In this document: one piece after another, positions 15,682 to 48,480 of the stretch | Layout: every line of letters begins with the position of its first letter | Position numbering within the stretch: the stretch's first letter is position 1 | Position numbers and translations under genes: made by a program | The notes under the pieces: generated by a model | What the model was told of the DNA's origin: nothing | The model's database searches: none | What the model saw: the letters and a program-made list of their open reading frames with translations, nothing else | Source: Gammaproteobacteria bacterium | GTDB lineage: Bacteria > Pseudomonadota > Gammaproteobacteria > GCA-001735895 | Length of the DNA: 54,052 nt | Reading direction: 5' to 3' | NCBI GenBank assembly: GCA_050298595.1 | Contig: JBNKUM010000051.1 | Location: 1 to 54,052, forward strand

Positions 15682-17481
15682 TCAGTACAAATTACCTGGT
15701 GGACTGTTATATTTATCCCACAGGGTTTTGAAGCTGGAATCCAGCTCGGAAAGCTCTGCATCAATTATCCCGAGCTGAGTTAATCCGGTTACTGGTTTGA
15801 TCTCTCCGGATTCCAGTTGCTTTTTGAGTTTTTCACGTTTTTTAAATACCTCTGTGATCCTTTGCTTGAGTGACTGCATTTGTTGATGATCATGTCGTGA
15901 AGTTGGAATATCTCTATTTTTTAAATGTGTATAAGGGGGCAGAGTTTGCAGGCGTTCATCATTTACTGGATCGCCTACCGTGAAGTGATACATATCCTGA
16001 AAGACTGAGTCTTTAAGACCCAGCAGCAAATGGAATTCGTCATCAAAGAAACAACCGATACCAGTACCGCGTTTTCCAATGGCTTCGGCCTGTAGATACA
16101 GCTGATGGCCGAGAAATCCTGCTTCCCAATACAGTTGACGATAGGACTCAGGACCAGTAGTCAGAGCTTTATCGAATTCAGCCAGCATGCCGAGACTGAA
16201 TGCACTGCTGGATGCAATTTCCTGATGACAGGATATGCTTCTTGCCTGTTTGCGTGAATCGGCATGAGATAATAGATAAAGCGGCAGCTCAGGTGGGCAG
16301 TGGTCTGGCCTGGTCCAGTGAAACTGATTGTCCATTATTTGTTGCATCTGCATGAAAGCCTGTTGGTGTCGGGGTAGTGCATACAGTCCAGGTTCCACTC
16401 CATTAACTCGATGTACAAAAATAATCGGGTGTAACAATGCTGGAAAATCCCAATATCTGGCAGAGCTGGTATCGGCTATGGTTAATAAGGAATTTAATAG
16501 GCAATAAAACTCATTTTGACTAATGGCACTAGTTTTAGCACTAAAAGCCTGTCCACTTCGACGTTGTCTGATGAGTGAAATTAGTGATTGATTGGATTGA
16601 TCAATGCAGGTTTTAAATACGCTTTTATGGGGTAAATTATCATTATTGTTTTGGGGCTTGGTATTTCTATCCCATGTTGCCTGAGATATTTCTTCAAGCA
16701 CCTTCCATTCATGGTACGGGTCTCCACCAAGAGGGTTCGCTTTTCCCGTCCAGTGATCAACCGGTGGAATGGTAAAGGGTTGTTTATCCTGCTCTGAGGA
16801 TATTTTTAATAATACATCCGGGTGCTCTCGTTCGGCATGCTGGTAATCCTGTTGTCGATCTAAGCCCAACAATGTGGCCAGAGAGTCATCATCAATTGAA
16901 ACTATAGCCACCTGAAGCTGAAGCGTACTCGCTGCATATTTCACCGCTGCAATGGCATGCCCCACATCCAGTTGAACATAGCGAAATGCTCGCTCACCAT
17001 ACTTCCAGGCTTCACGCCAGATGATGCTGCTTAGCCCAATGAATAAAGCAGGGTCGGTATTCTGTGGGGATGAGATAATGCCGCGCTGTTCAAGTACATG
17101 ATCATGTGGGGCATAGTGATGTACACCATCCTGCAATCCATCGATAGCGTTGGCGATCACATAGCCTTCAGTAGGGTGTAGATTACCACTGGAAGGGTTG
17201 CAACGCAGTGCCCAACGATTGGGGCCGTATTGTTTCCATGCAGACAGGCCCAGAGAAAGTTCAAGCAGGTTGGCGACTGTGGTGAGACTGAGATGACCGG
17301 TATCGGAGGGTTGCTCTGTTTCCAGCAAGGGTAACTCGGTTAATGCACAGCCCTGATACACGCGAAATGGATTGGGCTGGTTTTCCCAATCCAGATATTC
17401 GGGGCCGCGCGCATAACCACTCAGACGATGCTTGGTCCGCTCATGATAAGCCCTGACGATGTCGAGCTGGGTGCCGTTCAT
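15682..17481 (-). CDS. SagB/ThcOx-family nitroreductase-fold protein (two domains) with C-terminal helical extension
   Basis: YHERTKH, LDWENQPNPFR, LRCNPSSGNLHPTE, WREAWKYGERAFRY, GTGIGCFFDD. Confidence 0.9.
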   Translation of the reverse strand: MNGTQLDIVRAYHERTKHRLSGYARGPEYLDWENQPNPFRVYQGCALTELPLLETEQPSDTGHLSLTTVANLLELSLGLSAWKQYGPNRWALRCNPSSGNLHPTEGYVIANAIDGLQDGVHHYAPHDHVLEQRGIISSPQNTDPALFIGLSSIIWREAWKYGERAFRYVQLDVGHAIAAVKYAASTLQLQVAIVSIDDDSLATLLGLDRQQDYQHAEREHPDVLLKISSEQDKQPFTIPPVDHWTGKANPLGGDPYHEWKVLEEISQATWDRNTKPQNNNDNLPHKSVFKTCIDQSNQSLISLIRQRRSGQAFSAKTSAISQNEFYCLLNSLLTIADTSSARYWDFPALLHPIIFVHRVNGVEPGLYALPRHQQAFMQMQQIMDNQFHWTRPDHCPPELPLYLLSHADSRKQARSISCHQEIASSSAFSLGMLAEFDKALTTGPESYRQLYWEAGFLGHQLYLQAEAIGKRGTGIGCFFDDEFHLLLGLKDSVFQDMYHFTVGDPVNDERLQTLPPYTHLKNRDIPTSRHDHQQMQSLKQRITEVFKKREKLKKQLESGEIKPVTGLTQLGIIDAELSELDSSFKTLWDKYNSPPGNLY

Positions 17482-17757: not shown

Positions 17758-18078
17758 TTACTCAGCTGTGCTCGTGGCAGATATCATTTTCTGTAAATCA
17801 CCGGAATTAAACATCTCTTCTACGATATCGCTGCCGCCGATCAATTCACCGTTGATAAAAACCTGAGGGAAGGTAGGGAAGTTGGAAAAAGCAGGTAAAC
17901 GTTCCATGATAAAGGGTGACTGCAGGACGTTCAGATAACCAAAAGCAACACCCGTTTGTTTCAGTATGCTGGAGGCTTTGGCTGAGAAACCGCATTCAGG
18001 GTTATCCGGGGTTCCTTTCATGTAAATCATGATCGGGTTTTCATCAATCTGCTTTTGTATTTTTTCTTCGGTTTTCAT
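17758..18078 (-). CDS. Monothiol CGFS glutaredoxin (Grx4/GrxD family)
   Basis: YMKGTP..PECGFS, PTFPQ, GGSDI. Confidence 0.93.
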   Translation of the reverse strand: MKTEEKIQKQIDENPIMIYMKGTPDNPECGFSAKASSILKQTGVAFGYLNVLQSPFIMERLPAFSNFPTFPQVFINGELIGGSDIVEEMFNSGDLQKMISATSTAE

Positions 18079-18109
18079 TATGTATCTCCAATAGGGTTAA
18101 TAGTAGTGT

Positions 18110-19459
18110 TCATAGCATGCATTCCTGTAACAGCCGAGCGATATGCATAGAGGGTCTTTGAGTGCCTTCCTGTATTTGATGGCGACAGGAAAAACCATTG
18201 GCAATCAGTGTGGCTTGCGGGTTGTCTCGTATGCTTGGGAATAATGCCTGCTCTCCCATTTTCATGGAGAGTTCGCCATGCTCCTTTTCTAGCCCAAAGC
18301 TGCCAGCCATACCGCAACAGGAGGCTTCGATAAATTCAAAGTTTAACTGTGGTATCAGTTTTAATACCTTACGCATGGATTTCATTGCGCCAACAGCTTT
18401 CTGGTGGCAGTGTCCGTGAATCAGAACAGGAGTCTGGTTTTCATGCATGGCTTTGAATTCAACATTGAAGCGTTTGGTGGTAACTTCTCTGGCGATGAAT
18501 TCTTCCAGCAACAATGCCTGCTGCGACACCTTTTCTGCTGTCTCTCCAAATCCGAGAAATCGATAATCATCACGAATTGCCAGCAGGCAGGCTGGTTCCA
18601 GCCCAATGACTTTGCGCCCTGCTTCAACATGCGGGAGTAACATAGATAACATTCTTGCCGCTTCCTGGCGCGCTGATTCAACCTGACCATTGGCAATATA
18701 GGTTCTGCCGCAACATAAGGGACGGGTATCATTAAGCGCATCAGCATCGCCGCTTTCTGTGGTATAGACCTTGTAACCCGCTCGATTGAGTAACGCGATT
18801 GCAGCCTCAGCATTTTCAGGGGCAAAGTTATAAGTGAAGGTGTCGATGAGCAGGACAACCTCTGAGTGAAAAGCCTTCTCAGGCTCTAAATTCGGGTTGT
18901 TTTTCGCCATGAATTTATTGTTGACGGGAACTGGTAGCTGTCTATCGGCATTCAGTCCGGTCAACCATTCCACTATTTTTGCCAAAGGTTTAATGCGATT
19001 GCGTAGCGCGGTGAATTTAAAAAGATAAGGATACCGGCTAAGCAGTTTTGGGAGATTACTCAACAATCGAGTACGCATAGGCACTTGATGCTGCTTATAG
19101 TGTTGAGCAAGGTACTCAACCTTTATCATTGCGATATCGATGTTGTTTTCGCATTCGCGTTTACAGGCCTTGCATCCCAGGCATAGCTGCATGGCTACAA
19201 GTAGTTCGGGGTTGTGTAAGCTATCCTGTTCGTTCAGGGCTGATTTTAAAAGTTTGACGCGACCGCGTGGCGACAGGAATGGATTGCCGGTAACCCGATA
19301 GCTGGGGCACATCACATTCCTGTTTTCCAGCTCGCATTGACCACTATTAATACAGACAGCAACAGCTCGCGCAAAGTCGTCGCCCTGTTTTGGAATGTCG
19401 GCATAGGCATCCCCCATGCCGGCATCTTTATAGCTGGACCAGTCCAGAATGGTTTTCAT
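18110..19459 (-). CDS. Fe-S oxidoreductase (4Fe-4S dicluster plus CCG domains)
   Basis: CINSGQC..MCPSY, CLGCKACKREC, LCCGR, HGHCHQKA, CCGMAGSFG; start moved from 19516. Confidence 0.88.
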   Translation of the reverse strand: MKTILDWSSYKDAGMGDAYADIPKQGDDFARAVAVCINSGQCELENRNVMCPSYRVTGNPFLSPRGRVKLLKSALNEQDSLHNPELLVAMQLCLGCKACKRECENNIDIAMIKVEYLAQHYKQHQVPMRTRLLSNLPKLLSRYPYLFKFTALRNRIKPLAKIVEWLTGLNADRQLPVPVNNKFMAKNNPNLEPEKAFHSEVVLLIDTFTYNFAPENAEAAIALLNRAGYKVYTTESGDADALNDTRPLCCGRTYIANGQVESARQEAARMLSMLLPHVEAGRKVIGLEPACLLAIRDDYRFLGFGETAEKVSQQALLLEEFIAREVTTKRFNVEFKAMHENQTPVLIHGHCHQKAVGAMKSMRKVLKLIPQLNFEFIEASCCGMAGSFGLEKEHGELSMKMGEQALFPSIRDNPQATLIANGFSCRHQIQEGTQRPSMHIARLLQECML

Positions 19460-19469
19460 GAGAATATTT

Positions 19470-20033
19470 CTAGATGGCACCCCAGCCTTCGCGAACGATA
19501 TCAACCGTTGCGGCAAGTGCTTCGTCGAGTGCTACAGACGGATATTTTGGCTTATAGCTTTTTAATTCATTATAAATTGTGGCTACTTTATCGCCAGCAG
19601 ACTGGCCTTTGAAATCGCTTTTTTCTAATCCCAGTTCATCCAGCATTTCATTCCAGGGTACGCCCTGAACCAGGGGAATTAAGGTGATATGCGCGCCATA
19701 AACTTCAAGTTGCATCGCTGATTCGATATTGACTACGAACAGTACAATCTTAATTCCAGAATCAAAATCATCCTTATATTTATCTAAAAATATGGGCAAT
19801 AGACCGACCCTGTCGACAGCACCAATCACCATCTTTAATTTATCCGAAGCCAGTAAGGCAACACCGCGCATGATCTCTACTGGTGGTTTACTATGGCCTA
19901 AGGCATCAGCGATTTTACCTTCAATCAGTACGAGCTCTCCACGGAAAGCATCAATACCCGCTTCACAGGTAGTTTCGAGAAAATTTGAATTAAACAGTAA
20001 TCCATTGGATTTATAATTTTTCAGCAATGACAT
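19470..20033 (-). CDS. Hypothetical protein, first gene of a sigma54/NifA-type operon
   Basis: Directly downstream of the -24/-12 element; 10 bp gap to the next gene. Confidence 0.8.
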   Translation of the reverse strand: MSLLKNYKSNGLLFNSNFLETTCEAGIDAFRGELVLIEGKIADALGHSKPPVEIMRGVALLASDKLKMVIGAVDRVGLLPIFLDKYKDDFDSGIKIVLFVVNIESAMQLEVYGAHITLIPLVQGVPWNEMLDELGLEKSDFKGQSAGDKVATIYNELKSYKPKYPSVALDEALAATVDIVREGWGAI

Positions 20034-20067
20034 AAATAATCTCACATAAAGTATTAAATAGCCTTTA

Positions 20068-20083
20068 TGCAGAATTCATACCA
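20068..20083 (-). promoter_or_regulatory. sigma54 promoter
   Basis: TGGTAT-GAATT-CTGCA on the minus strand (GG-N10-GC). Confidence 0.75.
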
Positions 20084-20155
20084 TTTGGCATATCTGGAGT
20101 AAGTGCAATGAAAACAGTTATTTATCGAGTTGATGGGTGTTTCTATGGTGGATTT

Positions 20156-20171
20156 TGTTACATTGATAACA
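20156..20171. promoter_or_regulatory. NifA-type upstream activator sequence
   Basis: TGT-TACATTGATA-ACA (TGT-N10-ACA), ~75-90 bp upstream of the -24 element. Confidence 0.75.
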
Positions 20172-20255
20172 AAATGTTGTAGCAAGGACGGAGTAAATAT
20201 GCGAGCGCTGGAAACGTCAGGATCAAATAATTGAAGCTATATTTTTTGAACGGGC

Positions 20256-20341
20256 AAAAAAAACCGGTTGCGATAATTCGTGGTGATAAACCCCTGAGGG
20301 TGTATCACCACGAACTCCGTACCGGGTTAAAGGAGGAATTC
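20256..20341 (-). ncRNA. Structured 3' UTR/terminator of the DUF1127 gene; candidate 3'UTR-derived sRNA
   Basis: GAAUUCCUCCUUUAACCCGG, long hairpin, U8 tail; paralogous to 21086-21175. Confidence 0.55.
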
Positions 20342-20749
20342 TTAAGCAGCTATTGGATGCTGGTTGTGTAGATTCTTGTTTCTAGGGTCTTCATCCAGTT
20401 TGGGGCGACCATTGCGTACTACAAATTCTATGTCGCCACGTGTTATTCCAAGATCAGCCAGCTCGCGATCGGAATATGATTTCAGTTCTTTAATGGCTTG
20501 CTGGATTTCCTGTTCTTTCTCATTTACCAGGCTATAGACTTTGACAATCTTCTTTTGCTTAGGAGCAGAAGCTGTCTCTACCTTAACTTCACGCCAGGGC
20601 CATGCTGAAACGCCTTGTAATAACAATTCACGTGAGATACCGACATCTTTAAGCAGACGGTCATCAAGGGCTAATAGACTGTTGCGCGCACGCGCTCGTC
20701 CGGCCATAATGAAAAAATCTGCTAAAAGTGCTTTAAATCGGGTGAACAT
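20342..20749 (-). CDS. Protein with two DUF1127 (YjiS-like) repeats
   Basis: LLALDDRLLKDVGISR and ELKSYSDRELADLGITRGDI. Confidence 0.88.
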   Translation of the reverse strand: MFTRFKALLADFFIMAGRARARNSLLALDDRLLKDVGISRELLLQGVSAWPWREVKVETASAPKQKKIVKVYSLVNEKEQEIQQAIKELKSYSDRELADLGITRGDIEFVVRNGRPKLDEDPRNKNLHNQHPIAA

Positions 20750-20830
20750 TTCTCGTCTCAAAAATTAATTAAATATCTATCTGGCCGGTAGGAAACTGTT
20801 CTTCCATACGTAGGCTTGTTTGTTGATGAG

Positions 20831-20897
20831 TAAGATAGTTGAAATGTTGCACTGCAACAATTGATTTATTTTTGACGGTGGGATGAAAAATTCTCAT
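20831..20897 (-). promoter_or_regulatory. Promoter of the DUF1127 gene: LysR-type box, TGTTGCA-C-TGCAACA palindrome, -10 TATCTT
   Basis: ATGA-N7-TCAT (20883-20897), palindrome 20845-20859; duplicated at 21279-21345. Confidence 0.7.
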
Positions 20898-21085
20898 GTA
20901 TGAAAGTTGCAGAGATATCAGCAGTCTTTTTGTTAGGGTGTAGCGCGCAATTTTCTGGATGATGGGTTGAATCAGCAGGCTTACTATGAGCTAAAAGATT
21001 TTTTAATTACCTTTTATTTGCCAGTTGGAACCGGCATTAAAAATTGTGGGTTTGAAAAATGATGGGGCGATAATTTCTTTCAGGC

Positions 21086-21273
21086 AAAAAAAACCCGATT
21101 ACGATAATTCATGGTGATAAACCCCCTGGGATGTATCACCACGAACTCCGGAACCGGGTTAAGGGAGGAATTCTTGGGCACCTATTAGGTTATGCTGGAT
21201 CAGGCCCATCTCTTAGGTATTTGATTTCTAGATTACCTTAGAACTGCATATCAACTAATTGCCCTTGCTGATG
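21086..21273 (-). ncRNA. Candidate stand-alone sRNA (~190 nt), sibling of the DUF1127 3' UTR
   Basis: Duplicated promoter and duplicated structured 3' end with only ~100 nt between them and no substantial ORF. Confidence 0.6.
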
Positions 21274-21278
21274 TTGTA

Positions 21279-21345
21279 TAAGATAGTTGAAATGTTGCGC
21301 TGCAACAATTGATTTATTTTTGATGAAGAGATGAAAAAAATTCAT
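21279..21345 (-). promoter_or_regulatory. Second copy of the DUF1127-type promoter
   Basis: ATGA-N7-TCAT (21331-21345), TGTTGCGCTGCAACA (21293-21307), -10 TATCTT at identical spacing. Confidence 0.7.
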
Positions 21346-21427
21346 CTGAAAATAGTGTGATGTGGCTTTATTTAATTACATTATTGGTTTGCAGGATTAT
21401 TGCCGACATGTCCTTAGTGGACCCGGA

Positions 21428-21778
21428 TTAACATAGGTTAGGTTTGAGCTGAGGGGATGACTCAAATTCTGGATTTGTTTCCTGTAAATTCTGCCACGCC
21501 AGCCAACCGCCTTCGAGATTGTAGACTTCCTTAAACCCCATTCCACTGAGCAAGTGGCATATATCTCTGCTGCTATTGCCGTGATCACAGTAAACGACAA
21601 CAGGTGAATTTCTTTTTTTCTGAATAATCAGTTTTTTGATTTCGTTGTCTTCAATCATGCGTGCACCTGGGATATGACCCTGATTAAAGCAGGCACAGTC
21701 TCTGGTATCAAAAATAGTCAGATCATTGTTTATCTGAAGTCCTGCAAGATGTTGTGGAAATAGCTCAAGATAAGTCAT
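21428..21778 (-). CDS. Single-domain rhodanese (GlpE-like sulfurtransferase)
   Basis: GHIPGA, VYCDHGNSS active-site loop, NLEGGWLAW. Confidence 0.9.
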   Translation of the reverse strand: MTYLELFPQHLAGLQINNDLTIFDTRDCACFNQGHIPGARMIEDNEIKKLIIQKKRNSPVVVYCDHGNSSRDICHLLSGMGFKEVYNLEGGWLAWQNLQETNPEFESSPQLKPNLC

Positions 21779-21918
21779 GACTGGTTTGCTCTATTGATTT
21801 AGTTCCATTGATAGTCTGTTTGTTATGCTGCGGTGGGATTATTTTGATTTCTCTTTCAGATATTTCTCCATCTGCACAAATTTTTAAATTTTCGATCACG
21901 CACTTCTAATGGGCTGAA

Positions 21919-22416
21919 CTAACCGACTGCTCTTTTCCAGTACTGATCGATGCCCATATTGTTTTTGATGAAGGCTTCAATACCGTGTTCCTGAATAAAA
22001 TTGAGTTCTGCCGTTAACCAGTTATTGTACCCTTCTGACTGGCGGGTAAACTGATTCAGCAGATCGATGGTTTCCTGGTGTAATTCTGCATTGCAATTGT
22101 TTAATGTATTGAGATAGGTTTGCTGGCACTCGTTTGATATTCTCATGTCCAGTTCCAGGCAAAGCTGGATGGTAGTGCCGGTGAGCATATTCTCTGCTAT
22201 ATCTATATTGGCTGAACCATCAAGCTGTTGAATATGTAAAATCAAATGGTCTAGCTGTAACATCATCTCCTTTGATTTTTCACTGGTTAATTTGGCTAGT
22301 TCACTAAGTCCCCAATTTTTATACAGGCGACCATGTAGATAAAAATGATCAATGGCTGTTAGTGTCAGACTTAAAACCTGATTCAAATTCGATATAAGTT
22401 GTTTACTGTGCAGCAT
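21919..22416 (-). CDS. Bacterioferritin-like protein with degenerate ferroxidase centre
   Basis: LTAIDHFYLHGRLYKNWGL and WL..EL..I...GIEAF follow the Bfr pattern; diiron ligands substituted. Confidence 0.8.
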   Translation of the reverse strand: MLHSKQLISNLNQVLSLTLTAIDHFYLHGRLYKNWGLSELAKLTSEKSKEMMLQLDHLILHIQQLDGSANIDIAENMLTGTTIQLCLELDMRISNECQQTYLNTLNNCNAELHQETIDLLNQFTRQSEGYNNWLTAELNFIQEHGIEAFIKNNMGIDQYWKRAVG

Positions 22417-22438
22417 GCTTTATCTCCAGGAATTAAGA

Positions 22439-22870
22439 CTATAGATTCATGCGAATTCCAACCTGCCCAGCAGGCACGTCAGTTGATTTGATGTGTGCCG
22501 CCAGTGCGCTATCCATGGTGGCTGCGTGCAGGTTAAACCAGTTGGGCAGCATCTCTCTAACATAGGATTTTGCTATTGTGATTGAGCCTTTCTGTACCAT
22601 CTGTGCAAAGCGGGATAATTCTCCTAATATCCGTAAGTGTTCGGCCTTGTGTTCACTCGTGGCAGAGAAGCCGGTTTCCTGCATAAGCTGATTTTCTGAA
22701 TCGAAATGAAGTTTAGTATGCTCGACTAGCTCAGCAAATAAATTCTGGAATAAGGCCTTGTCAGCAAGATTTAATCGATTCACCAGAGATATGAATTCCT
22801 GGTGAGTCGTGTCCATTTGTTCAACGTCAAGTTGATATCGGTTGTCGTCAGGTTGAATTAAATTATCCAT
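22439..22870 (-). CDS. Single-domain bacteriohemerythrin
   Basis: MDTTH, HFDSE, HKAEH and HAATMD ligand set intact. Confidence 0.92.
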   Translation of the reverse strand: MDNLIQPDDNRYQLDVEQMDTTHQEFISLVNRLNLADKALFQNLFAELVEHTKLHFDSENQLMQETGFSATSEHKAEHLRILGELSRFAQMVQKGSITIAKSYVREMLPNWFNLHAATMDSALAAHIKSTDVPAGQVGIRMNL

Positions 22871-23102
22871 TCTTTATACCACTAGCTGCGCGTCTATGCT
22901 GGATTGTTTTGCTCACTTTTTTAGCAATATAAGCAGAATAATCTTCTATGTTTTCATAGTTGTATTCATTGGCCAGACTCGCGAGTTGATCAATCAAATC
23001 ACGTAGCCAGAGTATTTCATCCAGCTGGCGGCCACAGGTCAGGCATTTTGCCCCATCATCGCGGCAGTAATCTTTTCCCTGACAGGGGGTAAATGTTTTC
23101 AT
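22863..23102 (-). CDS. Small Cys-rich protein, probable Fe-S or Zn binder
   Basis: PCQGKDYCRDDGAKCLTCGR; overlaps the hemerythrin start. Confidence 0.75.
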   Translation of the reverse strand: MKTFTPCQGKDYCRDDGAKCLTCGRQLDEILWLRDLIDQLASLANEYNYENIEDYSAYIAKKVSKTIQHRRAASGIKNG

Positions 23103-23105
23103 TGT

Positions 23106-23978
23106 CTAGACTGCTACTGCCTGTTTACTTTCAGTGAAATCTGCTGCAGCTAACAGTTCATCCACATCCGCTTCAATTATCTCAATATGCTGACGTTTAC
23201 AGAAACGAATTTCTTTTTCATTGGGTTCAGGGATTAAGGCCCAACCTTTGGGTTCGTCAGCACTGTAAATCATATCGGATAAAACCATGCGCTCTGTATC
23301 ACGCGTCATGCGTAAGCCAATAAACAGGTACTGTTTGTTTTTACGATATTCCTTAATGAAATCAGGGATAGCAAAACCTCCCATTAATTCGGTGATGTAA
23401 TCTACAAAGTCTGCATCCGATGCAATATAGGTGGCATCAGGTACGGGGCTGCCCAGGGCTTTGAAAAGAACTGGAAGACTGGTGTCGACCTCGCTTTGGT
23501 CGATTTCTTTTTCACTGTATTTTTTACCGTCGTAATGATGAATTTTGAAGCGATAATCGGTACCTGCAATGCGCGAGATACCACGGATCAAGGTATGGGG
23601 TGTGTTGCTATAGGTTTCCTGTAATTGACTGTCACGGTTGATATCGATGATATAGGCTGGTTTTATAGTGGCTAGCCAGTCGTGTAAAGGTGCTCGAGTC
23701 CATTCGGTATCACCGTAGGTAGTGGCGAGAAAACGATGCACGGCATTACGCCCACGCTTCAATTCAAGGTCCATGGCAGCACGGGGAAATTCATACATCA
23801 GGCGCGGTGCCATGGGTTTGCCACCATTCATTGCCAGAATCAGGCTATTGCTATCAGCAGGGATGGGTTCGCCGGATTTAATCTGTACACTGCCAGTGAG
23901 CGCGCCAGCACCCAGGTATGGAACGATTTTATTATTTTTAATTCCTTCGATTAGATCGTTTAATTTTGTATCGGCCAT
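23106..23978 (-). CDS. SIR2-like domain protein
   Basis: IVPYLGAG, IIDINRD, LFKALG, YIASDADFVDY, YLFIG. Confidence 0.8.
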   Translation of the reverse strand: MADTKLNDLIEGIKNNKIVPYLGAGALTGSVQIKSGEPIPADSNSLILAMNGGKPMAPRLMYEFPRAAMDLELKRGRNAVHRFLATTYGDTEWTRAPLHDWLATIKPAYIIDINRDSQLQETYSNTPHTLIRGISRIAGTDYRFKIHHYDGKKYSEKEIDQSEVDTSLPVLFKALGSPVPDATYIASDADFVDYITELMGGFAIPDFIKEYRKNKQYLFIGLRMTRDTERMVLSDMIYSADEPKGWALIPEPNEKEIRFCKRQHIEIIEADVDELLAAADFTESKQAVAV

Positions 23979-24013
23979 TTAAAGCTCCAAATATGATTAT
24001 TTTTGTTATTAGT

Positions 24014-26246: not shown

Positions 26247-28343
26247 CTATGCAGGGCTGTTGTGACGTCCCTGCGCCTGAATTGCGGTAATCGCAACGGT
26301 GTTGACGATGTCAGTCACCGTACACCCGCGAGAGAGGTCGTTAACCGGTTTATTTAAGCCCTGCAAGATTGGTCCGATAGCGACCACACCTGCGCTGCGT
26401 TGCACTGCCTTGTAGGTGTTATTGCCAGTATTCAGGTCGGGAAAGATAAACACCGTGGCGCGGCCGGCGACTTCACTTTGCGGTAGCTTGGTTTTTGCGA
26501 CTGAGGCATCCACCGCAGCGTCATACTGAATCGGTCCCTCCACTTTGTACCAGGGTGCCTTTTTTTGAGCTATCGACACCGCTTCGCGTACCTTTTCCAC
26601 TGCTGCGCCAACTCCGGAGTCACCGGTAGAATAGGAGAGCATCGCTACCCTGGGAACTATGCCGAAACACTCGGCTGTGGCTGCCGAGGTGATTGCTATT
26701 TCAGCCAGTTGCTCAGCATTGGGGTCGGGATTGACCGCACAGTCACCATACACCAGCACCCGATCCGCCATGCTCATCAGAAATACGCTGGAAATCATCC
26801 CGTGTCCCGGCGCTGTTCGAATCACCTCGAACGCCGGACGAATGGTATGCTGGGTGGTGTTTACCGCACCCGAGACCATGCCATCCGCGTCGCCACAATG
26901 TACCATCAGCGTGCCGAAGTAACTGATATCCTCGATCATATCCAAAGCCGCTTCGGGGGTTAGTCCCTTGTCTTTACGCGCTTCATACAGGGCGTCGGCA
27001 TAGCGTTGGCGAAGCGGCGATCGAACCGGATCGATTAGTTGCGCCTTATCTAGACGAAGGCCCAAACCTGATGCTTTGTTCCGAATCGTATCGGGATCGC
27101 CCAGCAGGGTGATATCCGCGACCTCGCGTAACAAAAGAATCTCGGCAGCGCGCAATACCCGTTCTTCATAGCCTTCCGGCAGTACAATATGCTGACGCTG
27201 TTGGCGCGCGCGCTGGATGATCTCGTACTCGAAGCGTAGTGGCGTGGTGATCTGTAGCTTGTTGTCAAACAATTCACCGGCCAGGCTGAAACAATCAACT
27301 GGCAGTTCCTCGGTTAACGCCTGTGCCGCCGCCAGCTTGCGCGGATTGTCGATGTCCAGTTGAGATTCCACCTCGTCCACGGCAGTAGCGGTCGCAAAAG
27401 TGTCCTGATCCACCACCAAGATAGGCAGGTTTCTTCCACCCAGCCCTTTGACCAGTTTCATCACCTCGGCTGCAGGGTGCAGTCCCCCAGTCAGCAGAAT
27501 CCCGGCAATATGAGGATACTCGCTACTGGTATCTGCAAGCAGACACCCCAGAATCACGTCATTGCGATCTCCCGGTGTAATCACCAGGCTACCGTCGGTT
27601 AAATGCTCGAGGAAATGCGGCAATTCCATGGCCGCGATCAGGTAATGTGACACTTCACGCTCCAGGTTTGTCGGCGTTCCGACCAATAGTCTGGCACCCA
27701 GGGTGCGCGCAACATCACCGACAGTTGGCATGTCGAGCACGGGCTGATGTTTCAGCAGGTAAATTGCCACATCGTTCTGCACCGAGGCCTTCAGGCGATC
27801 CCTGGCCGCCTCCGATAGCGAGGGATCCACTCGGTTTATAAAAAGTGCAAAAACCTGACTGTGATGCTCCGCCAACGTCTCCTGCAGGCTTTGCAGGTCT
27901 TCAAGCAATTGTTCTTCGTCACGCTGGTGTCCATCGATAATCACCACGACCTGGCAACCCAGGTGGTTAGCCAGTTCGAGGTTGAAGTCAAGATCGGCGC
28001 CGGGCAGGCTTTTGCTGAAGTCAGTGCCTTCGCACAGAATATGCATGTGCTGTTGATCCAGTTCACGGAAGCGATCGATTACGTTTTTGATGACCTCGTT
28101 CTTGTTTCCATCCGCCAATAACCTGTGGGCTTCCCGTTCCAGCAGACCATAATGCGCCGAGTGCTTCAGGTCTGTACCGTAACGGGTCAGCATCAACTGC
28201 AGCACCCGGTCCTCGACATCGGCAATAATCGGGCGAAAGTAGGCTGTGCGCCCACTCGCAGCCGTCAGACGATCCATAAAGCCCAGGCTTAAGGCAGATT
28301 TACCGCTGCGGCGGGCGGTACCGGTGATATAGAGATGGGTCAT
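26247..28343 (-). CDS. pta: Phosphate acetyltransferase, long form with DRTGG domain
   Basis: ITPGDR, IVLPEG, GMVSGA, DCAVNPDP, GPIQYDAA, FPDLNTGNNTYKAVQR, PVNDLSRG. Confidence 0.97.
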   Translation of the reverse strand: MTHLYITGTARRSGKSALSLGFMDRLTAASGRTAYFRPIIADVEDRVLQLMLTRYGTDLKHSAHYGLLEREAHRLLADGNKNEVIKNVIDRFRELDQQHMHILCEGTDFSKSLPGADLDFNLELANHLGCQVVVIIDGHQRDEEQLLEDLQSLQETLAEHHSQVFALFINRVDPSLSEAARDRLKASVQNDVAIYLLKHQPVLDMPTVGDVARTLGARLLVGTPTNLEREVSHYLIAAMELPHFLEHLTDGSLVITPGDRNDVILGCLLADTSSEYPHIAGILLTGGLHPAAEVMKLVKGLGGRNLPILVVDQDTFATATAVDEVESQLDIDNPRKLAAAQALTEELPVDCFSLAGELFDNKLQITTPLRFEYEIIQRARQQRQHIVLPEGYEERVLRAAEILLLREVADITLLGDPDTIRNKASGLGLRLDKAQLIDPVRSPLRQRYADALYEARKDKGLTPEAALDMIEDISYFGTLMVHCGDADGMVSGAVNTTQHTIRPAFEVIRTAPGHGMISSVFLMSMADRVLVYGDCAVNPDPNAEQLAEIAITSAATAECFGIVPRVAMLSYSTGDSGVGAAVEKVREAVSIAQKKAPWYKVEGPIQYDAAVDASVAKTKLPQSEVAGRATVFIFPDLNTGNNTYKAVQRSAGVVAIGPILQGLNKPVNDLSRGCTVTDIVNTVAITAIQAQGRHNSPA

Positions 28344-28358
28344 AGCGGTTTCAGTGTT

Positions 28359-29561
28359 TCAATGGTTGCAGATTAAGCGGGTTTGACGTGCGATTTCCAG
28401 CTCTTCGTTGGTGCGAATCACGAGCAATGGAATGCGCCCGGTTTGGTCACCAGATTGCAGGTGAATCGGGCATAACGGTCCGTCGACACTGGCGTTGGCC
28501 GATTCATCCAGCTGGATTCCAAGATGCTGTAGATTGTCAACGATTGCCTGACGAACAGCTGCGGCATGCTCACCTATGCCGCCGGTGAAGATCAGGGCAT
28601 CCACCCTACCCAGCAGCGCCAGGTAAGCACCGATGTATTTGCGAATACGATGACAATAAATCTCCAACGCCAGCTGCGCCTGCTTATCAGCATCATCAAC
28701 ACGACGCAAAATGCTGCGCATATCATTGTCACCACACAGGGCGCGCAGACCGCTTTCCTTGTTCAATGCATGATCGATTTCCTGCGCTGTGAATCCCGCG
28801 CGCTGCTGCAGGTAACCGCCGATAGCCGGATCAATATCACCCGAGCGGGTACCCATCACCAATCCTTCTAGTGGTGTCATCCCCATCGAGGTGTCGCGAC
28901 AACGCCCCTGTTCAATAGCGCAGATGCTGGCTCCGTTGCCCAGGTGCAGGCTGATCAGGTTGCACTGCTCCAGTGGGCGACCCAGCCGCTGTGCCGCCTG
29001 TGCGGCGACATAGGCATGAGAGGTGCCATGAAAACCATAGCGGCGCACACCGTATTGCTGGTACCAGTCATCCGGCACTGCATAGCGCCAGGCAGATTCC
29101 GGCATATCCTGGTGAAATGCGGTGTCGAAAACTGCCACCTGCGGCAAATCAGGAAAAAGGCGCTGACAGGCCTCGATACCGGCCAGATTGGCAGGATTGT
29201 GCAGTGGGGCAAGCGGAATACAATCACGAATCTGTTGAATGCTGTTTTTGTCCAGCAACGCTGGCTCACAAAAGGCTTCTCCTCCGTGAACAACCCGGTG
29301 ACCAATAGCCGATAAGGGCGTAGCCTCGGTTAACAGTTTCGAGTCCCTGAGCGCTTCGAAAATCACTGTCATACCCTGATCATGATTGCGAGCAGTAACT
29401 TCCCGCTGCAGACAGGAGCCGTTATCAGGGTTTAAAGTCAACTCCGCCTTTGTTTCACCGATACGCTCAAGGAGCCCGGAAAGTAGTCGAGACTCATCTT
29501 CCATTGATAATAACTGGAATTTGATGGAGGAACTACCGGAGTTGATGACTAGAATAAGCAT
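28359..29561 (-). CDS. ackA: Acetate kinase
   Basis: INSGSSSIKF, GHRVVHGG, APLHNPAN, VFDTAFHQ, YGFHGTSH, FTGGIGE. Confidence 0.97.
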   Translation of the reverse strand: MLILVINSGSSSIKFQLLSMEDESRLLSGLLERIGETKAELTLNPDNGSCLQREVTARNHDQGMTVIFEALRDSKLLTEATPLSAIGHRVVHGGEAFCEPALLDKNSIQQIRDCIPLAPLHNPANLAGIEACQRLFPDLPQVAVFDTAFHQDMPESAWRYAVPDDWYQQYGVRRYGFHGTSHAYVAAQAAQRLGRPLEQCNLISLHLGNGASICAIEQGRCRDTSMGMTPLEGLVMGTRSGDIDPAIGGYLQQRAGFTAQEIDHALNKESGLRALCGDNDMRSILRRVDDADKQAQLALEIYCHRIRKYIGAYLALLGRVDALIFTGGIGEHAAAVRQAIVDNLQHLGIQLDESANASVDGPLCPIHLQSGDQTGRIPLLVIRTNEELEIARQTRLICNH

Positions 29562-30665: not shown

Positions 30666-31514
30666 TTAAAGGTAGCTGCTAACATTAACTTCATAAGCTC
30701 CTCCAATTACCAGATATTCTTCTTCACCTTTCATGCATCCGGGTAACAGGTCAGGGAAGAACAGGATTTTTGCATGCGGTATTTCTACCGTCATGATCAA
30801 ATCACCAAATTCGTCAGCACGATCCCGATTCTGGGTGAATGAATTCAGGTTGTTCAGCAATATCACCATGTTTGATGATGATTTTCTGGTCAGGATCTCA
30901 TGTTCATTGAGTCGGTTGAATCCTCTATATAAGGTGCGATGCGACTGTTCAGGATAGCGTCGTGCTAATTCGTATTGGGTAAAGCTGTATAAAAGGTCTA
31001 ACTGGGCTTCCAGTGCATTGGTGTTATATAGACCAAGGCATCTGGCGTGCTGGTAGTGCTCATACTGTGTTGATGCAAAATCGGTAATCGGTCCCTGATG
31101 GTTTAGCGTCATTAATCCAAATCTGGATTCTACCCAACCTTTCATAACTGCAGCTTCCTGACTATTAGGGTCAAAGTGCCAGCCGCGTAGTAATTTTAGA
31201 TAATCTGCTTTGTCGCGTCGCTTAGCCGTACTGTTTTCGAGTTGGCCGACCTGTTCAGGGTTATCCAGTAGAAAGCTGGCGCGCATGTAATCGTTAAAGT
31301 GCATTACGCGTGTTTTGATATCTTTTATTCCGTGTAAATCATCGAACAGTTGCTTGTGTATCTCGGTCACGCCATCTATGCGAAGAGCAACGGGATGTAG
31401 TTGAAACGTCAGACCGCCAAGGATCTGAGCGGGGAGGTTACAGCGATTTATTGGTAACCTTGAATACGCCGGTAGTGAAGCCTTCATTGTTGGTGTTTGT
31501 GTGTATTCTTCCAT
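30666..31514 (-). CDS. draT: NAD(+)-dinitrogen-reductase ADP-ribosyltransferase
   Basis: LPINRCNLPA, EAAVMKGWVESRFGL, LYRG, NNLNSF, GEEEYLVIGG; divergent from nifH. Confidence 0.95.
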   Translation of the reverse strand: MEEYTQTPTMKASLPAYSRLPINRCNLPAQILGGLTFQLHPVALRIDGVTEIHKQLFDDLHGIKDIKTRVMHFNDYMRASFLLDNPEQVGQLENSTAKRRDKADYLKLLRGWHFDPNSQEAAVMKGWVESRFGLMTLNHQGPITDFASTQYEHYQHARCLGLYNTNALEAQLDLLYSFTQYELARRYPEQSHRTLYRGFNRLNEHEILTRKSSSNMVILLNNLNSFTQNRDRADEFGDLIMTVEIPHAKILFFPDLLPGCMKGEEEYLVIGGAYEVNVSSYL

Positions 31515-31517
31515 ACA
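31502..31517. promoter_or_regulatory. NifA UAS candidate for nifH (a second, imperfect site TGT-N10-ACT at 31531-31546)
   Basis: TGT-ATTCTTCCAT-ACA about 100 bp upstream of -24. Confidence 0.65.
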
Positions 31518-31614
31518 TTATCAGGGGGATTGTAGCGAAACCGACTTAAATAAAATGTTCATAAAATCAACTTAAAATCTTTTAAAACAACAGCTTACTA
31601 AATTTTTACAACAT

Positions 31615-31630
31615 TGGCACACAGCTTGCT
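31615..31630 (+). promoter_or_regulatory. sigma54 promoter of nifH
   Basis: TGGCAC-ACAGC-TTGCT consensus match. Confidence 0.93.
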
Positions 31631-31639
31631 ATCTCCTGA

Positions 31640-32575
<936 letters not shown>

Positions 32576-32680
32576 GTTGTATGGGTAGGTATCGACCCCG
32601 GTCTGGGGCGGTATCTGCAGATTATTGATCCAGAAGCCAGCCATCTACAGATTAGTAGTGGTGGTAATAAGGAGAAAAAT

Positions 32681-34162
32681 ATGTCTAATTTGACACGTGA
32701 AGAAACTGAAGCCCTCATTCAGGAGGTGCTGGAAGTTTATCCTGAGAATGCAAAGAAAGATCGCGCTAAGCATCTGACTGTTAACGATCAGGATGTTGAG
32801 CAATCCAAGAAGTGTATTACTTCAAATCGTAAATCTCTGCCAGGTGTAATGACTATTCGTGGATGTGCCTATGCAGGGTCTAAAGGTGTGGTGTGGGGGC
32901 CAATCAAGGACATGATCCATATCTCTCATGGACCTGTTGGTTGCGGTCAGTACTCTCGTGCCGGACGTCGTAACTACTATGTTGGTACTACAGGTGTTAA
33001 TACTTTTGGGACCATGAACTTTACTTCTGATTTTCAGGAAAAAGATATCGTTTTCGGTGGTGATAAGAAGCTTGCGACTATCATGACTGAAATCGAACAG
33101 TTATTCCCATTAAACAAAGGTATCTCTATTCAGTCAGAATGCCCGATCGGTTTGATCGGTGATGACATTGAAGCTGTTGCCAAGAAAACCACTAAAGAAA
33201 TCAACAAGCCAGTCGTTCCTGTACGTTGTGAAGGTTTCCGTGGTGTATCTCAGTCACTCGGGCACCATATTGCGAACGATGCAGTTCGTGACTGGGTTCT
33301 GGGTAACCGCGATGCTGATACCAGCTTCGAACAAACCGATTATGACGTGACTATTATTGGTGACTATAACATCGGTGGTGATGCCTGGTCTTCACGTACT
33401 CTGCTGGAAGAAATGGGTTTGCGTGTTATCGCTCAATGGTCTGGTGACGGTACTCTGGCTGAAATGGAAAACACTCCAAAAGCCAAGCTAAACCTGATTC
33501 ATTGCTATCGTTCAATGAACTACATCTCTCGTCACATGGAAGAGAAGTACAACATTCCATGGATCGAATATAACTTCTTTGGTCCTACCAAAATCGCAGA
33601 ATCTTTACGTAAGATTGCGGCATTGTTTGACGACAAAATCAAGGAAGGTGCTGAGCGTGTAATTGAAAAATACAAGGCACAGTATGAAGCTGTGATCGCT
33701 AAATACCGTCCACGCCTGGAAGGTAAGCGCGTGATGCTTTATGTCGGTGGTCTGCGTCCACGTCACGTGATTGGAGCTTATGAAGATCTGGGTATGGAAG
33801 TTGTAGGCACCGGATACGAATTCGCGCATAACGATGATTATGATCGCACCATCAAGGAAATGGGCAATGCAACACTGATTTATGATGACGTTACCGGCTA
33901 CGAATTCGAGGAATTTGTTAAAAAGGTCAAGCCTGACCTGATCGGTTCTGGTATCAAGGAAAAGTATATATTCCAGAAAATGGGTATTCCTTTCCGTCAG
34001 ATGCATTCATGGGATTATTCCGGTCCTTACCATGGTTATGACGGGTTCGCTATCTTTGCCCGCGACATGGATATGACACTGAACAATCCTTGCTGGAACA
34101 AGATTAAAGCGCCCTGGTTGCAGGAAAGCGAGGAAGCTACCGCTGCTGCAGTAGGTGCCTGA
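32681..34162 (+). CDS. nifD: Nitrogenase MoFe protein alpha chain
   Basis: RGCAYAG, GPVGCG, SECPIG, HCYRS, YEFAH, MHSWDY. Confidence 0.99.
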
Positions 34163-34271
34163 TCGGACTATTAGGGGGCGGAGCAAAAGCCGAGCCCTCT
34201 GATTGTTCCAAACTATTTTTTAATTCACCTGTTCCGTTGTTCACAGATTAGTGGCGCGGATGGAGATTATC

Positions 34272-35843
34272 ATGAGTCAAGCTATAGAAGATATTAAGCC
34301 GAGTTATCCACTGTTTCGTGAAGACGAATACAAGGATTCTCTTAAAAACAAACAGGATAACTACGAAGAAAAGCATCCTCAGGACAAGATTGAAGAAGTT
34401 TTTCAGTGGACTACCAGTGAAGAATACAAGGATCTTAATTTTGAAAGAACTGCTCTAACCGTAAACCCTGCTAAAGCCTGTCAGCCTCTGGGTGCGGTAC
34501 TATGTGCGCTGGGTTTTGAAAAAACCCTGCCGTATGTACATGGTTCTCAGGGCTGTGTTGCCTATTTCCGTACTTACTTCAATCGTCATTTCAAGGAGCC
34601 AGTTGCCTGTGTATCTGATTCCATGACTGAAGATGCTGCGGTATTCGGTGGCCAGAAAAACATGTTTGCAGGCCTGGAAAATGCCAAGGCATTGTACAAG
34701 CCAGAAATGATTGCGGTTTCTACTACCTGTATGGCTGAGGTTATCGGTGATGACTTGAACGCCTTTATTGGTAACGCCAAGAAAGCCGGTGCTGTTGAAG
34801 AAGATTTCCCAACCCCATTTGCGCATACCCCAAGCTTTGTAGGTTCGCATACAACCGGTTGGGATAACATGTTCGAAGGTATCATGCGTTATTTTACGCT
34901 GAACCATATGGAAGATAAGGAAGTTGGCAGTAACAAAAAAATCAACATCGTTCCCGGTTTTGAAACCTATCTGGGTAACTATCGTGTCATGAAGCGCATG
35001 ATGAAAGATATGGATGTTGAATGCAGCCTGTTAAGTGATCCTACTGACGTACTGGATACACCTGCAGACGGCACTTTCCGTATGTATGATGGTGGTACTA
35101 CGCTGGATGAAATGAAAGATGCGCCTAACGCTATCGACACATTATTCCTGCAGCCATGGCAGTCAGTTAAAAGTCGTAAGTTTGCCAAACTGACCTGGAA
35201 ACAGCCTGCATCTGATATCGCTATTCCTATGGGTCTGAGCGCTACGGATGACTTCCTGATGAAAGTTTCTGAATTGACTGGTAAGCCAATCTCTGAAGCT
35301 CTGACTCGTGAGCGTGGTGTACTGGTTGACATGATGACTGATAGTCATGCCTGGTTACACGGTAAGAAGTTTGGTGTTTATGGCGATGCAGATTTCGTTC
35401 TGGGTATGGTTAAGTTCCTGCTTGAACTGGGTGCTGAGCCAACTCAAATCCTGTGTCAACATGCTAACAAGCGTTGGAAGAAAGCGGTAGAAGAAATTCT
35501 TGCTGCATCACCTTATGGGCAGAATAGTGAAGTCCATATCGGTAAGGATCTGTGGCATTTTCGTTCACTGATGTTCACCAACAAGCCTGATTTTATGATT
35601 GGTAACTCTTACGGTAAATTTATCCAGCGCGATACCTTACACAAGGGTAAGGAGCACGAAGTTCCTCTAATCCGTATTGGCTTCCCGATCTTTGATCGTC
35701 ATCACATGCATCGTGACACTACTCTGGGTTACGAGGGTGCGATGTACATGCTGAAGATGCTGGTGAACTCGGTTCTGGAACGTCTGGACGAAGAAACCCG
35801 AGGTATGGGTACAACTGACTACAACTACGATCTGGTTCGTTAG
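34272..35843 (+). CDS. nifK: Nitrogenase MoFe protein beta chain
   Basis: NPAKACQPLG, HGSQGCVAYFR, TTCMAEVIGDDL, C-terminal YDLVR. Confidence 0.99.
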   Translation: MSQAIEDIKPSYPLFREDEYKDSLKNKQDNYEEKHPQDKIEEVFQWTTSEEYKDLNFERTALTVNPAKACQPLGAVLCALGFEKTLPYVHGSQGCVAYFRTYFNRHFKEPVACVSDSMTEDAAVFGGQKNMFAGLENAKALYKPEMIAVSTTCMAEVIGDDLNAFIGNAKKAGAVEEDFPTPFAHTPSFVGSHTTGWDNMFEGIMRYFTLNHMEDKEVGSNKKINIVPGFETYLGNYRVMKRMMKDMDVECSLLSDPTDVLDTPADGTFRMYDGGTTLDEMKDAPNAIDTLFLQPWQSVKSRKFAKLTWKQPASDIAIPMGLSATDDFLMKVSELTGKPISEALTRERGVLVDMMTDSHAWLHGKKFGVYGDADFVLGMVKFLLELGAEPTQILCQHANKRWKKAVEEILAASPYGQNSEVHIGKDLWHFRSLMFTNKPDFMIGNSYGKFIQRDTLHKGKEHEVPLIRIGFPIFDRHHMHRDTTLGYEGAMYMLKMLVNSVLERLDEETRGMGTTDYNYDLVR

Positions 35844-42699: not shown

Positions 42700-42819
42700 C
42701 TTAATTTAAACCCCTGTTTATTGTTGACACTGAATTAACAACGCAAGTACCGGGAAGACTTTTTGCTTGCATTCGCAATATTGATCACAATTTTTCAATG
42801 AGATCATAAGTGTCGACCA

Positions 42820-43740: not shown

Positions 43741-43919
43741 TTAAAAATTTTGTAGCAATTTAAGCGGCGTGATAATTCCTCTAACAAGCTTTGTGGGAAG
43801 ACCTTTCAATTGACTACCCTTTTCAGGGTGTACATACGGCCTTTTGTTCCATTTGATACCTCCTGTTTAGCCTCCAGCCGAAAGAACATGAGATAAGAAA
43901 ACCCTTAGACCTCTACGAG

Positions 43920-44291: not shown

Positions 44292-44384
44292 TGGGAGCAT
44301 TCCATAGAATTCATAAAAAAGCACCGTTTTTTTAGGGGTAGCAGGAGCATCACTAGGAAAAGTAGAGGTCCTCTCTTTTTTAAA

Positions 44385-44722: not shown

Positions 44723-44760
44723 TTGAAGGATTGTCGCGCAGCAAAATCCCCCTCTCCATG

Positions 44761-45670: not shown

Positions 45671-45804
45671 GGCAGGAGTGATGAGCTTGTTATTTCGTGA
45701 TTTAACCGAGTCGAAATCAGCAGGGCCATTTCTCTGTTTGAGAGTGTAAACAACAGAATACCTACTGTTCCGTTGCAGTGAATAAGATACCTGGAGTATG
45801 AGGG

Positions 45805-48411: not shown

Positions 48412-48480
48412 CGGGGCCAGAGTCACAAGCTCTGTACCCATCAGACCCTGGAATGTCAGGCTATTAGAAAGAGTATACAA

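Follow-up and report, generated by a model that had tools for sequence, protein, structure and literature searches.

The window analyzed here comprises 54,052 nucleotides (nt), positions 1 to 54,052 of contig JBNKUM010000051.1 in the NCBI GenBank assembly GCA_050298595.1 (Gammaproteobacteria bacterium). By strand reading and with repeat and alignment tools we delimited two tandem units on its minus strand, unit 2 at 21345-21086 and unit 1 at 20897-20256. Each opens with a promoter block (21345-21275 and 20897-20827; 61/71 positions identical, 97.8% over a 45-nt core) and closes with a 3′ module (21175-21086 in unit 2 and 20343-20256 in unit 1; 81/91 identical). An original prediction, made by a model that saw only the letters of the sequence, had described two such units with a common promoter and a common 3′ RNA module, and the alignments bear this out. 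The 5.49-Mb genome (G000) holds two copies of the promoter block, namely those of units 1 and 2, and three of the module; the third is on contig C8, likewise 3′ of a gene for a DUF1127 protein.

Unit 1 encodes a protein. Following a poorly conserved 5′ untranslated region (UTR; 20826-20750, with a putative start near 20826), it carries an open reading frame (ORF) of 135 aa at 20749-20342, with its stop codon TAA at 20344-20342. The product matches Pfam PF06568 (DUF1127; E 6e-16, 58.3 bits against a cut-off of 23.3) in two stretches, both recovered again by a six-frame genome search, and the two DUF1127 repeats previously proposed for this protein are thus confirmed. Its orthologues within the genus are 75%, 56% and 54% identical.

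The module that follows has three parts, namely the AAGAAUUCCUCCCUUAA stretch, which is unpaired, an interrupted terminator hairpin of 26 bp and a U-tail. In unit 1 the unpaired stretch reads AAGAAUUCCUCCUUUAA (20343-20327); it is conserved, starts inside the stop codon and is unpaired in the consensus structure, and it is followed by the hairpin at 20326-20264 and a U8 tail at 20263-20256 (112.7 bits with the covariance model of the module). In unit 2 the same stretch occupies 21175-21159 in near-invariant columns; it resembles an anti-Shine-Dalgarno (anti-SD) sequence and is predicted from the folds to be single-stranded. We refer to it as the seed. The hairpin and U8 tail of unit 2 lie at 21158-21094 and 21093-21086 (RNAalifold; covariance model R1, 108.5 bits).

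Three sequence elements are common to both promoter blocks. The most upstream is an inverted repeat, ATGA-N7-TCAT (core TGA-N7-TCA), at 21345-21331 in unit 2, about -70 from the putative start, and at 20897-20883 in unit 1. The second is an exact palindrome, TGTTGC-N3-GCAACA, forming the dyads TGTTGCAGCGCAACA in unit 2 (21307-21293, core TGCA-G-CGCA) and TGTTGCAGTGCAACA in unit 1 (20859-20845, core TGCA-G-TGCA), which overlap the -35 region and the spacer. The third is a -10-like hexamer, TATCTT, at 21285-21280 (with C at -13) and 20837-20832; in relatives it is TATCTT, TATAGT or TATATT. No sigma-54-type GG-N10-GC pattern was seen on reading the unit promoter. A simple terminator scan flagged both palindromes on the plus strand (20845-20859 and 21293-21307) as terminator-like; these flags are an artefact of the scan because each is a 6-bp stem followed by a T-rich stretch.

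The body of unit 2, about 98 nt at 21273-21176 (the start near 21273 being placed from the -10), is non-coding in the alignments. It had been described as some 100 unrelated nt, a description that fails for its last ~65 nt, in which the alignments recognize the 3′ end of a DUF1127 ORF (blocks CTAGAAA, CCAGCAT and AATAG-TGC; 42/79 identity between remnant and ORF end). The stop codon TAA has become CAA, such that CTAATAGGTGCCCAA in unit 2 corresponds to CCAATAGCTGCTTAA in unit 1. The proteins of unit 1 and of the contig C8 paralogue end in ...HPIAA* and ...QPIAA*, respectively, and the C8 module comes after that stop codon. Since the 3′-end blocks and the mutated stop remain, unit 2 can be read as an internally deleted gene copy: very probably it is a duplicate of the double-DUF1127 gene that lost nearly all of its ORF by internal deletion and retained promoter and module, making the two units deletion-derived twins. 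As a protein-coding gene it is a pseudogene, with a recognizable ORF remnant from which the start and most of the coding sequence are gone. This status does not decide whether its RNA functions. The original prediction was to be abandoned if relatives showed unit 2 to be a deleted protein gene with an unconserved CCUCC motif; the gene is indeed deleted, but the motif is conserved, as shown below, and so the combination as a whole was not found.

It could be argued that unit 2 instead codes for a small protein, either a 16-aa peptide (MGLIQHNLIGAQEFLP) from the ATG at 21207 or the product of a 33-codon GTG frame at 21181-21080. Both frames exist, and the earlier statement that unit 2 has no ORF over 16 codons therefore holds for ATG starts and not for GTG. 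However, the 16-codon frame arises where the ORF remnant is read past its mutated stop, with no spaced Shine-Dalgarno sequence, and the GTG frame passes through the terminator hairpin and is not retained in the other module copies. No equivalent frame occurs in the other ORF-less units described below, and in two of them (G071 and G072) the ATG frames end after 3-4 codons. We consider a small-protein gene very improbable.

To place the module in its family, we searched 79 genomes, which constitute the whole family and also the whole order in the collection used (14 genomes of the unit-bearing genus and 65 of three other genera), with the unit 2 DNA and with a covariance model built from the module copies. 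Eleven sense copies were found in six of the 14 genomes of one uncultured gammaproteobacterial genus (G000 and G071-G075) and none in the 65 genomes from the three remaining genera. In the sister genus (G016 and G063) no module lies 3′ of the stop of the double-DUF1127 orthologues, and a search for single-protein loci returned only distant single-domain DUF1127 relatives. Across a collection of 185,579 species, a first, looser pattern matched more than 120 stretches, and the covariance model accepted only two of the 80 loci fetched as real; a refined pattern matched 11 stretches, of which seven were real, all labelled "MAG: Gammaproteobacteria bacterium". The one stretch found by the refined pattern in metagenome contigs of the Joint Genome Institute (JGI) was not real by the same model. 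The wide scans thus gave no further sequences for covariation, since nothing real was found beyond the known loci of the family.

Every module copy lies 3′ of a DUF1127 ORF or of a recognizable remnant of one, in the same orientation, and the seven gene-linked copies begin inside the ORF stop codon. Units with promoter and module and no ORF recur in three other species (G071, G072 and G075), which strengthens the idea of an ORF-less sibling put forward in the original prediction. Their bodies, of ~40, 55 and 140 nt, are unrelated, and their loci differ: the G071 unit is 2.2 kb downstream of a DUF1127 gene, the G072 unit adjoins cytochrome and thioredoxin-like genes, and the G075 unit adjoins a gene for an M24-peptidase-like protein. 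At this last locus there is an ORF-less unit in G075, an intact gene with its promoter in G074 and a 5′-truncated copy in G000 and G073, the latter two truncated at the identical point. The genus therefore displays every stage, from the intact gene through copies truncated at the 5′ end or with part of a domain deleted to the ORF-less unit.

Two of these loci deserve description. At G000:C8:20950-21371 lies the third DUF1127 paralogue of the genome, missing its promoter and 5′ end and interrupted by an in-frame TAA, yet with an intact 3′ module (107 bits). The paralogue and an M24-peptidase/creatinase-like gene are convergently arranged. At G072:C71:403-780 an orthologous DUF1127 gene of ~97 aa from an MFTRV start has lost most of the second DUF1127 stretch and retains the ...HPIAA end and the module.

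A sequence with a long hairpin that is repeated at several loci could also be a dispersed repeat or mobile element, resembling a repetitive extragenic palindrome (REP) or a miniature inverted-repeat transposable element (MITE), that adjoins DUF1127 genes by chance. The genomic distribution argues otherwise: three module and two promoter copies are few for 5.49 Mb, the orientation 3′ of a DUF1127 ORF or remnant is constant, the flanks are at chance identity, and no terminal repeats or target duplications were seen in the flanks read. Of all the explanations weighed here, this is the one we find hardest to credit.

We compared G000 with its orthologous loci in G075 and G071 part by part. Identity was 0.94 (16/17) and 0.88 (15/17), respectively, in the seed, 0.87 (13/15) and 0.93 (14/15) in the promoter dyad, and 0.89 and 0.73 in the hairpin. 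Within the ORF it was 0.85 and 0.71 at codon positions 1 and 2 and 0.66 and 0.41 at position 3, and it fell to 0.51 and 0.36 in the 5′ UTR and to 0.30-0.61 in the flanks. The non-coding tail is therefore better preserved than the protein, and the CCUCC within it, which the original prediction had singled out as a seed, is invariant in 11/11 module copies. The module is likely to be under purifying selection.

One explanation for this preservation is a function in cis only, whereby the module would be a terminator combined with an mRNA-stability or autoregulatory element (for example, a site for the gene's own protein) and the ORF-less units would be wrecks that have yet to decay. The location of all module copies 3′ of a DUF1127 ORF or remnant fits this explanation, as does the decay of DUF1127 copies in the genus (the 5′-truncated C8 paralogue with its in-frame TAA and the G072 gene with its second domain partly gone). 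The RNA contigs and target predictions discussed below can be counted in its favor as well, as the former leave unit 2 uncovered and the latter give no significant targets. On the other hand, four species each retain exactly the promoter and the module without the ORF, although the extents of the deletions and the loci differ. Within the G000 pair, identity is 0.86 in the promoter and 0.89 in the module, compared to 0.53 in the ORF remnant and 0.55 in the flanks, which is chance level. In addition, the seed is held single-stranded in the predicted folds of all four ORF-less units, which would be needless for a mere terminator. We regard the cis-only explanation as unlikely, though it deserves to be taken seriously.

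The consensus structure of the module (RNAalifold) has 26 pairs, and 97.5% of the alignment cells at these positions are paired compared to 32-50% when the partners are slid; three pairs show compensatory changes. The AAGAAUUCCUCCCUUAA stretch is unpaired both in this consensus and in the minimum free energy fold of unit 2, where the mean probability of being unpaired is 0.82 for the seed and 0.95 for CCUCC. Over all four ORF-less units the mean for the seed is 0.65-0.88, and each is predicted to fold into one or more 5′ stem-loops, an open seed and a terminator with a U7-8 tail. For the unit 2 RNA, which has such a 5′ stem-loop domain, the fold z-score is -4.1. The CCUCC that the original prediction had named as a seed is thus predicted to be exposed.

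These features could be accommodated by a second alternative, in which the ORF-less RNAs do not pair with mRNAs but act as decoys that sequester DUF1127 protein, Hfq or, by Shine-Dalgarno mimicry, ribosomes. Conservation of the invariant hairpin (GUGGUGAUA/UAUCACCAC) goes far beyond what a terminator requires, no mRNA targets could be distinguished, and the DUF1127 protein CcaF1 is described as binding RNAs (PMC8034643). In contrast, the best-conserved and most exposed part of the module is the CCUCC, and this is the hallmark of base-pairing anti-SD seeds. Moreover, other DUF1127 proteins reportedly act by protein-protein contacts, with PhoR in the case named in the title of one study (PMC12501420). 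We judge a decoy function improbable.

The palindrome in the promoter blocks gave the analysis an element that is absent from the original prediction, as it resembles the operator of PhaR/AniA. The motif given for this regulator is W2N2-YGCR-N-YGCR-N2W2 in Sinorhizobium meliloti (bioRxiv 10.1101/2025.02.17.638283) and YTKNTGCRNYGCANMAR in R. eutropha (PMC12849132), as far as these accounts state it. The sequence ATTGT-TGCA-G-TGCA-ACATT fits both motifs, and both units conform (TGCA-N-YGCA). The exact 15-mer TGTTGC-N3-GCAACA occurs at four sites in the 5.49 Mb, where simple arithmetic predicts ~0.3. These sites are units 1 and 2, the phaE/phaA-phaR intergenic region and the region upstream of a DUF6455 gene. 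PhaR itself is encoded in G000 (PF07879 match on contig C28; gene at 51605-52078). A dyad lies upstream of phaE in 7/7 phaE-bearing genomes of the genus, down to 42% protein identity. At the phasin gene directly after phaR there are tandem dyads, TGCAGCGCA and TGCAGTGCA, whose cores are those of units 2 and 1; they lie directly 3′ of a TTGACA/TACTAT promoter, and only five tandem pairs of this type occur in the genome.

Among the ten unit promoter blocks of the genus, the full dyad is present in eight. The two degenerate ones are both in G072, a genome that is 100% complete and in which neither phaE nor a PhaR domain was found, and these blocks still retain TGA-N7-TCA and the -10. In the PhaR-positive genomes G000, G071 and G075 the dyad is intact in 7/7 blocks, a small and non-independent sample. 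Since they overlap the -35 region and the spacer, the unit dyads are in the position of a repressor site. It is likely, judging from the motif and its distribution, that the palindrome is a PhaR-type operator.

In G000 the polyhydroxyalkanoate (PHA) locus itself (G000:C28:49155-53600) consists of a phaE-like gene, for the E-subunit of a class III PHA synthase, divergent from thiolase-, phaR-, phasin- and acetoacetyl-CoA-reductase-like genes. A single PhaR-type dyad occupies the divergent region, and the phasin promoter has two in tandem. The DUF6455 site (G000:C82:21120-21134) is ~70 nt upstream of its gene, which is followed by genes for an FlK-like acyl-CoA thioesterase and a GFA-family protein; by their motif, these are possibly further members of a PhaR regulon.

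The upstream repeat behaves differently from the dyad, as TGA-N7-TCA persists at about -70 in 10/10 promoter blocks across the genus, including those with a decayed PhaR dyad. The sequence (G)ATGA-N7-TCAT(C) points to a putative second regulator besides PhaR. Presumably it would fit a T-N11-A box of the LysR type, which is expected near -65, and the LysR (LsrB/VtlR) idea of the original prediction leans on this repeat; no LysR-family gene was present among the scanned neighbors of the units.

Taking these data together, we favor, by a narrow balance of probability, the interpretation that the units are sibling small RNAs (sRNAs) with an anti-SD seed, repressed by PhaR and responsive to polyhydroxybutyrate (PHB), and that they are analogous, not homologous, to the CcsR/CcaF1 and MmgR systems. 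A double-DUF1127 gene with a conserved RNA module as its 3′ UTR is very probably the ancestor of both units. Unit 2 would yield a non-coding RNA of ~188 nt, with 5′ stem-loops, a single-stranded seed and a terminator with a U-tail, and the unit 1 mRNA may also release a 3′ end of the same kind. From the position of the operator over the -35 region and the spacer, PhaR would repress both units. Nascent PHB granules would draw off PhaR and so release them, under carbon surplus with nitrogen limitation. By analogy with known anti-SD sRNAs, the seed may base-pair with the Shine-Dalgarno regions of target mRNAs, probably with the help of Hfq. The units have the features of Hfq-type sRNAs (an intrinsic terminator with a U-tail and a seed predicted to be single-stranded), and an hfq gene is present in the genome, where ProQ was not found. 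Finally, the DUF1127 protein may bind or stabilize the module RNAs as CcaF1 does for CcsR; this is the weakest step, because other DUF1127 proteins work through protein contacts.

Candidate targets were predicted with RNAduplex by pairing a 20-nt seed with candidate translation-initiation regions, using flank-shuffled seeds as the control. The best match was a DJ-1/PfpI gene (G000:C85:9197; -24.0 kcal/mol, rank 1/15,055), with 18/20 seed nt paired at a candidate site that G071 and G075 retain, as does G073 in part. A gene for an Fe-S subunit (G000:C100:9667) offers a run of 12 contiguous pairs, and in G071 and G075 the pairing weakens to -14.4; the initiation region of phaE scores -16.0 (rank 32/2144). 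The 5′ UTR of the DJ-1/PfpI gene (G000:C85:8637-9240) contains GGUUAAGG, an 11-nt loop and GAGGAGGAAUUCU; it is complementary to 18/20 seed nt and identical in G071 and G075. A close orthologue of this gene (E<=1e-30) was found in only 4/14 genomes of the genus, all of them module carriers.

Several observations weigh against this interpretation. With regard to targets, the real seed finds 18 initiation regions at <= -17 kcal/mol compared to 11-44 for 12 flank-shuffled CCUCC seeds, the energy of the DJ-1/PfpI match is equalled or beaten by the best match of 7/14 shuffled seeds, and the phasin initiation region pairs poorly (-7.4). With regard to transcription, a sigma-70 consensus scan of the locus called no promoter, so the term "promoter" for these units rests on conservation, and their -35 (TTGTTG) is poor. 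In the single RNA run found, root-metatranscriptome contigs from a 90-99% relative, compared over 20200-21400, cover only 20602-20791 and leave unit 2 and the modules uncovered. With regard to PhaR, the loose motif shows no genome-wide enrichment (110 sites compared to ~80 expected), and G074 has an intact dyad although no PhaR was found in it, this genome being only 74% complete. With regard to selection, the small set of module copies is closely related and comes from non-independent genomes, so that the covariation in homologues that the original prediction had called for amounts to a modest signal in the three compensatory pairs. In no other genome is unit 2 matched by an orthologue at its own position from which purifying selection on this particular copy could be gauged, and gene conversion between paralogues could also keep promoter and module alike.

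The original prediction drew an analogy to the DUF1127-linked anti-SD sRNAs of Alphaproteobacteria, and this proves apt. In Rhodobacter sphaeroides the CcsR sRNAs reside in the 3′ UTR of ccaF1, a DUF1127 gene, and CcaF1 acts on CcsR, and in this account CIN1 loci are reported only from four alphaproteobacterial families (PMC8034643). Like CcsR1-4 (the "cuckoo", or CIN1, RNAs) with CcaF1, the present units combine a DUF1127 gene with a C-rich anti-SD RNA in its 3′ UTR and homologous siblings, a putatively condition-responsive promoter and a protein that may be the RNA-binding partner. Of the marks of CcsR (CIN1) loci, which include release from the 3′ UTR by RNase E, adjacency to a DUF1127 ORF is found here too. 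The differences are considerable, so far as the published description extends. In CcsR RNAs, CCUCCUCCC sits in the loop of each of two hairpins, whereas here a single unpaired UUCCUCC(C)UU stretch precedes the terminator outside any loop, and that 9-mer is missing from all 11 module copies. The four CcsR RNAs are co-transcribed, and their promoter depends on RpoHI/HII, while the sibling here has its own promoter, with a putative PhaR-type operator. CcaF1 has 71 aa, compared to 135 aa with two DUF1127 stretches here, and the CcsR lineage is alphaproteobacterial whereas these units are in a gammaproteobacterium. An Rfam search, which the original prediction had proposed, disclosed no real match: with cmscan run over 18000-24000 and E values up to 10 admitted, the only matches were to miRNAs and snoRNAs and are attributable to chance. 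The units are therefore not members of the CcsR/ar14 families, given that ar14 and related models are, as we assume, in Rfam.

The promoter architecture recalls that of MmgR (alpha-r8) of S. meliloti, an sRNA bearing an anti-SD motif that PhaR/AniA represses through a dyad between -35 and -10 (PMC8401924, PMC7143759). Both systems combine a PhaR/AniA dyad in the core promoter, here a putative one, with an anti-SD motif (PMC8401924, PMC7143759, bioRxiv 10.1101/2025.02.17.638283), and MmgR is described as Hfq-dependent and tied to PHB and the carbon:nitrogen balance in a diazotroph, which would be a further likeness. In these accounts, however, MmgR is a 77-nt RNA of three stem-loops with the anti-SD motif in the first loop, whereas here the motif is linear and the RNA derives from the 3′ UTR of a gene. 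MmgR is also activated by NtrC and is not linked to DUF1127, as the units here are, and the poor predicted pairing with phasin mRNA is another difference. The units would act like MmgR, then, but are no member of the MmgR/alpha-r8 family (no Rfam match and another architecture). NfeR1/alpha-r14 of rhizobia resembles them in its multi-copy loci, some beside DUF1127 ORFs, and in an unpaired anti-SD motif directed toward translation-initiation regions; it differs in having three hairpins with the motif in the loops, in being confined to Alphaproteobacteria and in having no PhaR link in the report cited (PMC7143759).

A different parallel is provided by the 3′-UTR-derived Hfq-type sRNAs of enterobacteria, such as CpxQ, SdhX and DapZ. 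Their seed also lies directly upstream of the intrinsic terminator of the mRNA, and the 3′ UTR is more conserved than neutral sites, as is the case here. We know of no free-standing duplicate of these sRNAs formed by ORF deletion and of no link between them and DUF1127 or PhaR.

Elsewhere in the window there are draT-nifHDK (30666-35843) and ackA-pta (26247-29561), as well as cellulases and a rhamnogalacturonan lyase (39901-50121), a gene content suggestive of a host that fixes nitrogen and degrades plant polymers. The units had been assigned to a nif region; nifHDK (31649-35843) is indeed in the neighborhood, ~10 kb off, which puts the units outside the nif operon. An ORF of 191 aa (19470-20045, minus strand) with no Pfam or NCBIfam match lies immediately downstream of unit 1 and adjoins the module in G071 and G075 too (~62-88%, tblastx). 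Between hemerythrin/bacterioferritin-like genes and the upstream region there is a gene for a 290-aa SIR2_2-domain protein preceded by a Cys-rich ORF of 79 aa that belongs to no family (22863-23978, minus strand). A 599-aa peptide-dehydrogenase-like protein of the SagB type (nitroreductase fold) is encoded at 15682-17481 (minus strand), which hints at a nearby set of genes for peptide maturation.

A broader reading is that DUF1127 genes and anti-SD sRNAs form a recurring functional pair beyond Alphaproteobacteria, wired here, in an uncultured, diazotrophic genus that degrades plant cell walls, to the PHB-granule sensor PhaR, and that sRNA genes are repeatedly born by duplication of the DUF1127 gene and ORF deletion, which would leave just the PhaR-controlled promoter and the seed and terminator of the 3′ UTR; part of this reading is that the pair outside Alphaproteobacteria arose independently or persisted. 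We offer it tentatively and think it rather doubtful on present evidence. In the literature searched we found no report linking DUF1127 with PhaR or PHB regulation; one genomics paper has both terms, and DUF1127 does not occur in the PhaR regulon preprint (bioRxiv 10.1101/2025.02.17.638283).

If our interpretation is correct, the partnership of DUF1127 with anti-SD sRNAs would extend from the four alphaproteobacterial families of the published account to a gammaproteobacterium with a structurally different RNA, and this would speak for a functional link over one that merely reflects accidental shared ancestry. The units would be the second, independent riboregulator under the control of PhaR after MmgR, tying carbon storage to translation control in a nitrogen fixer. 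They would also provide an unusually clear series of steps by which duplication and ORF loss turn a seed in a 3′ UTR into an independent sRNA gene.

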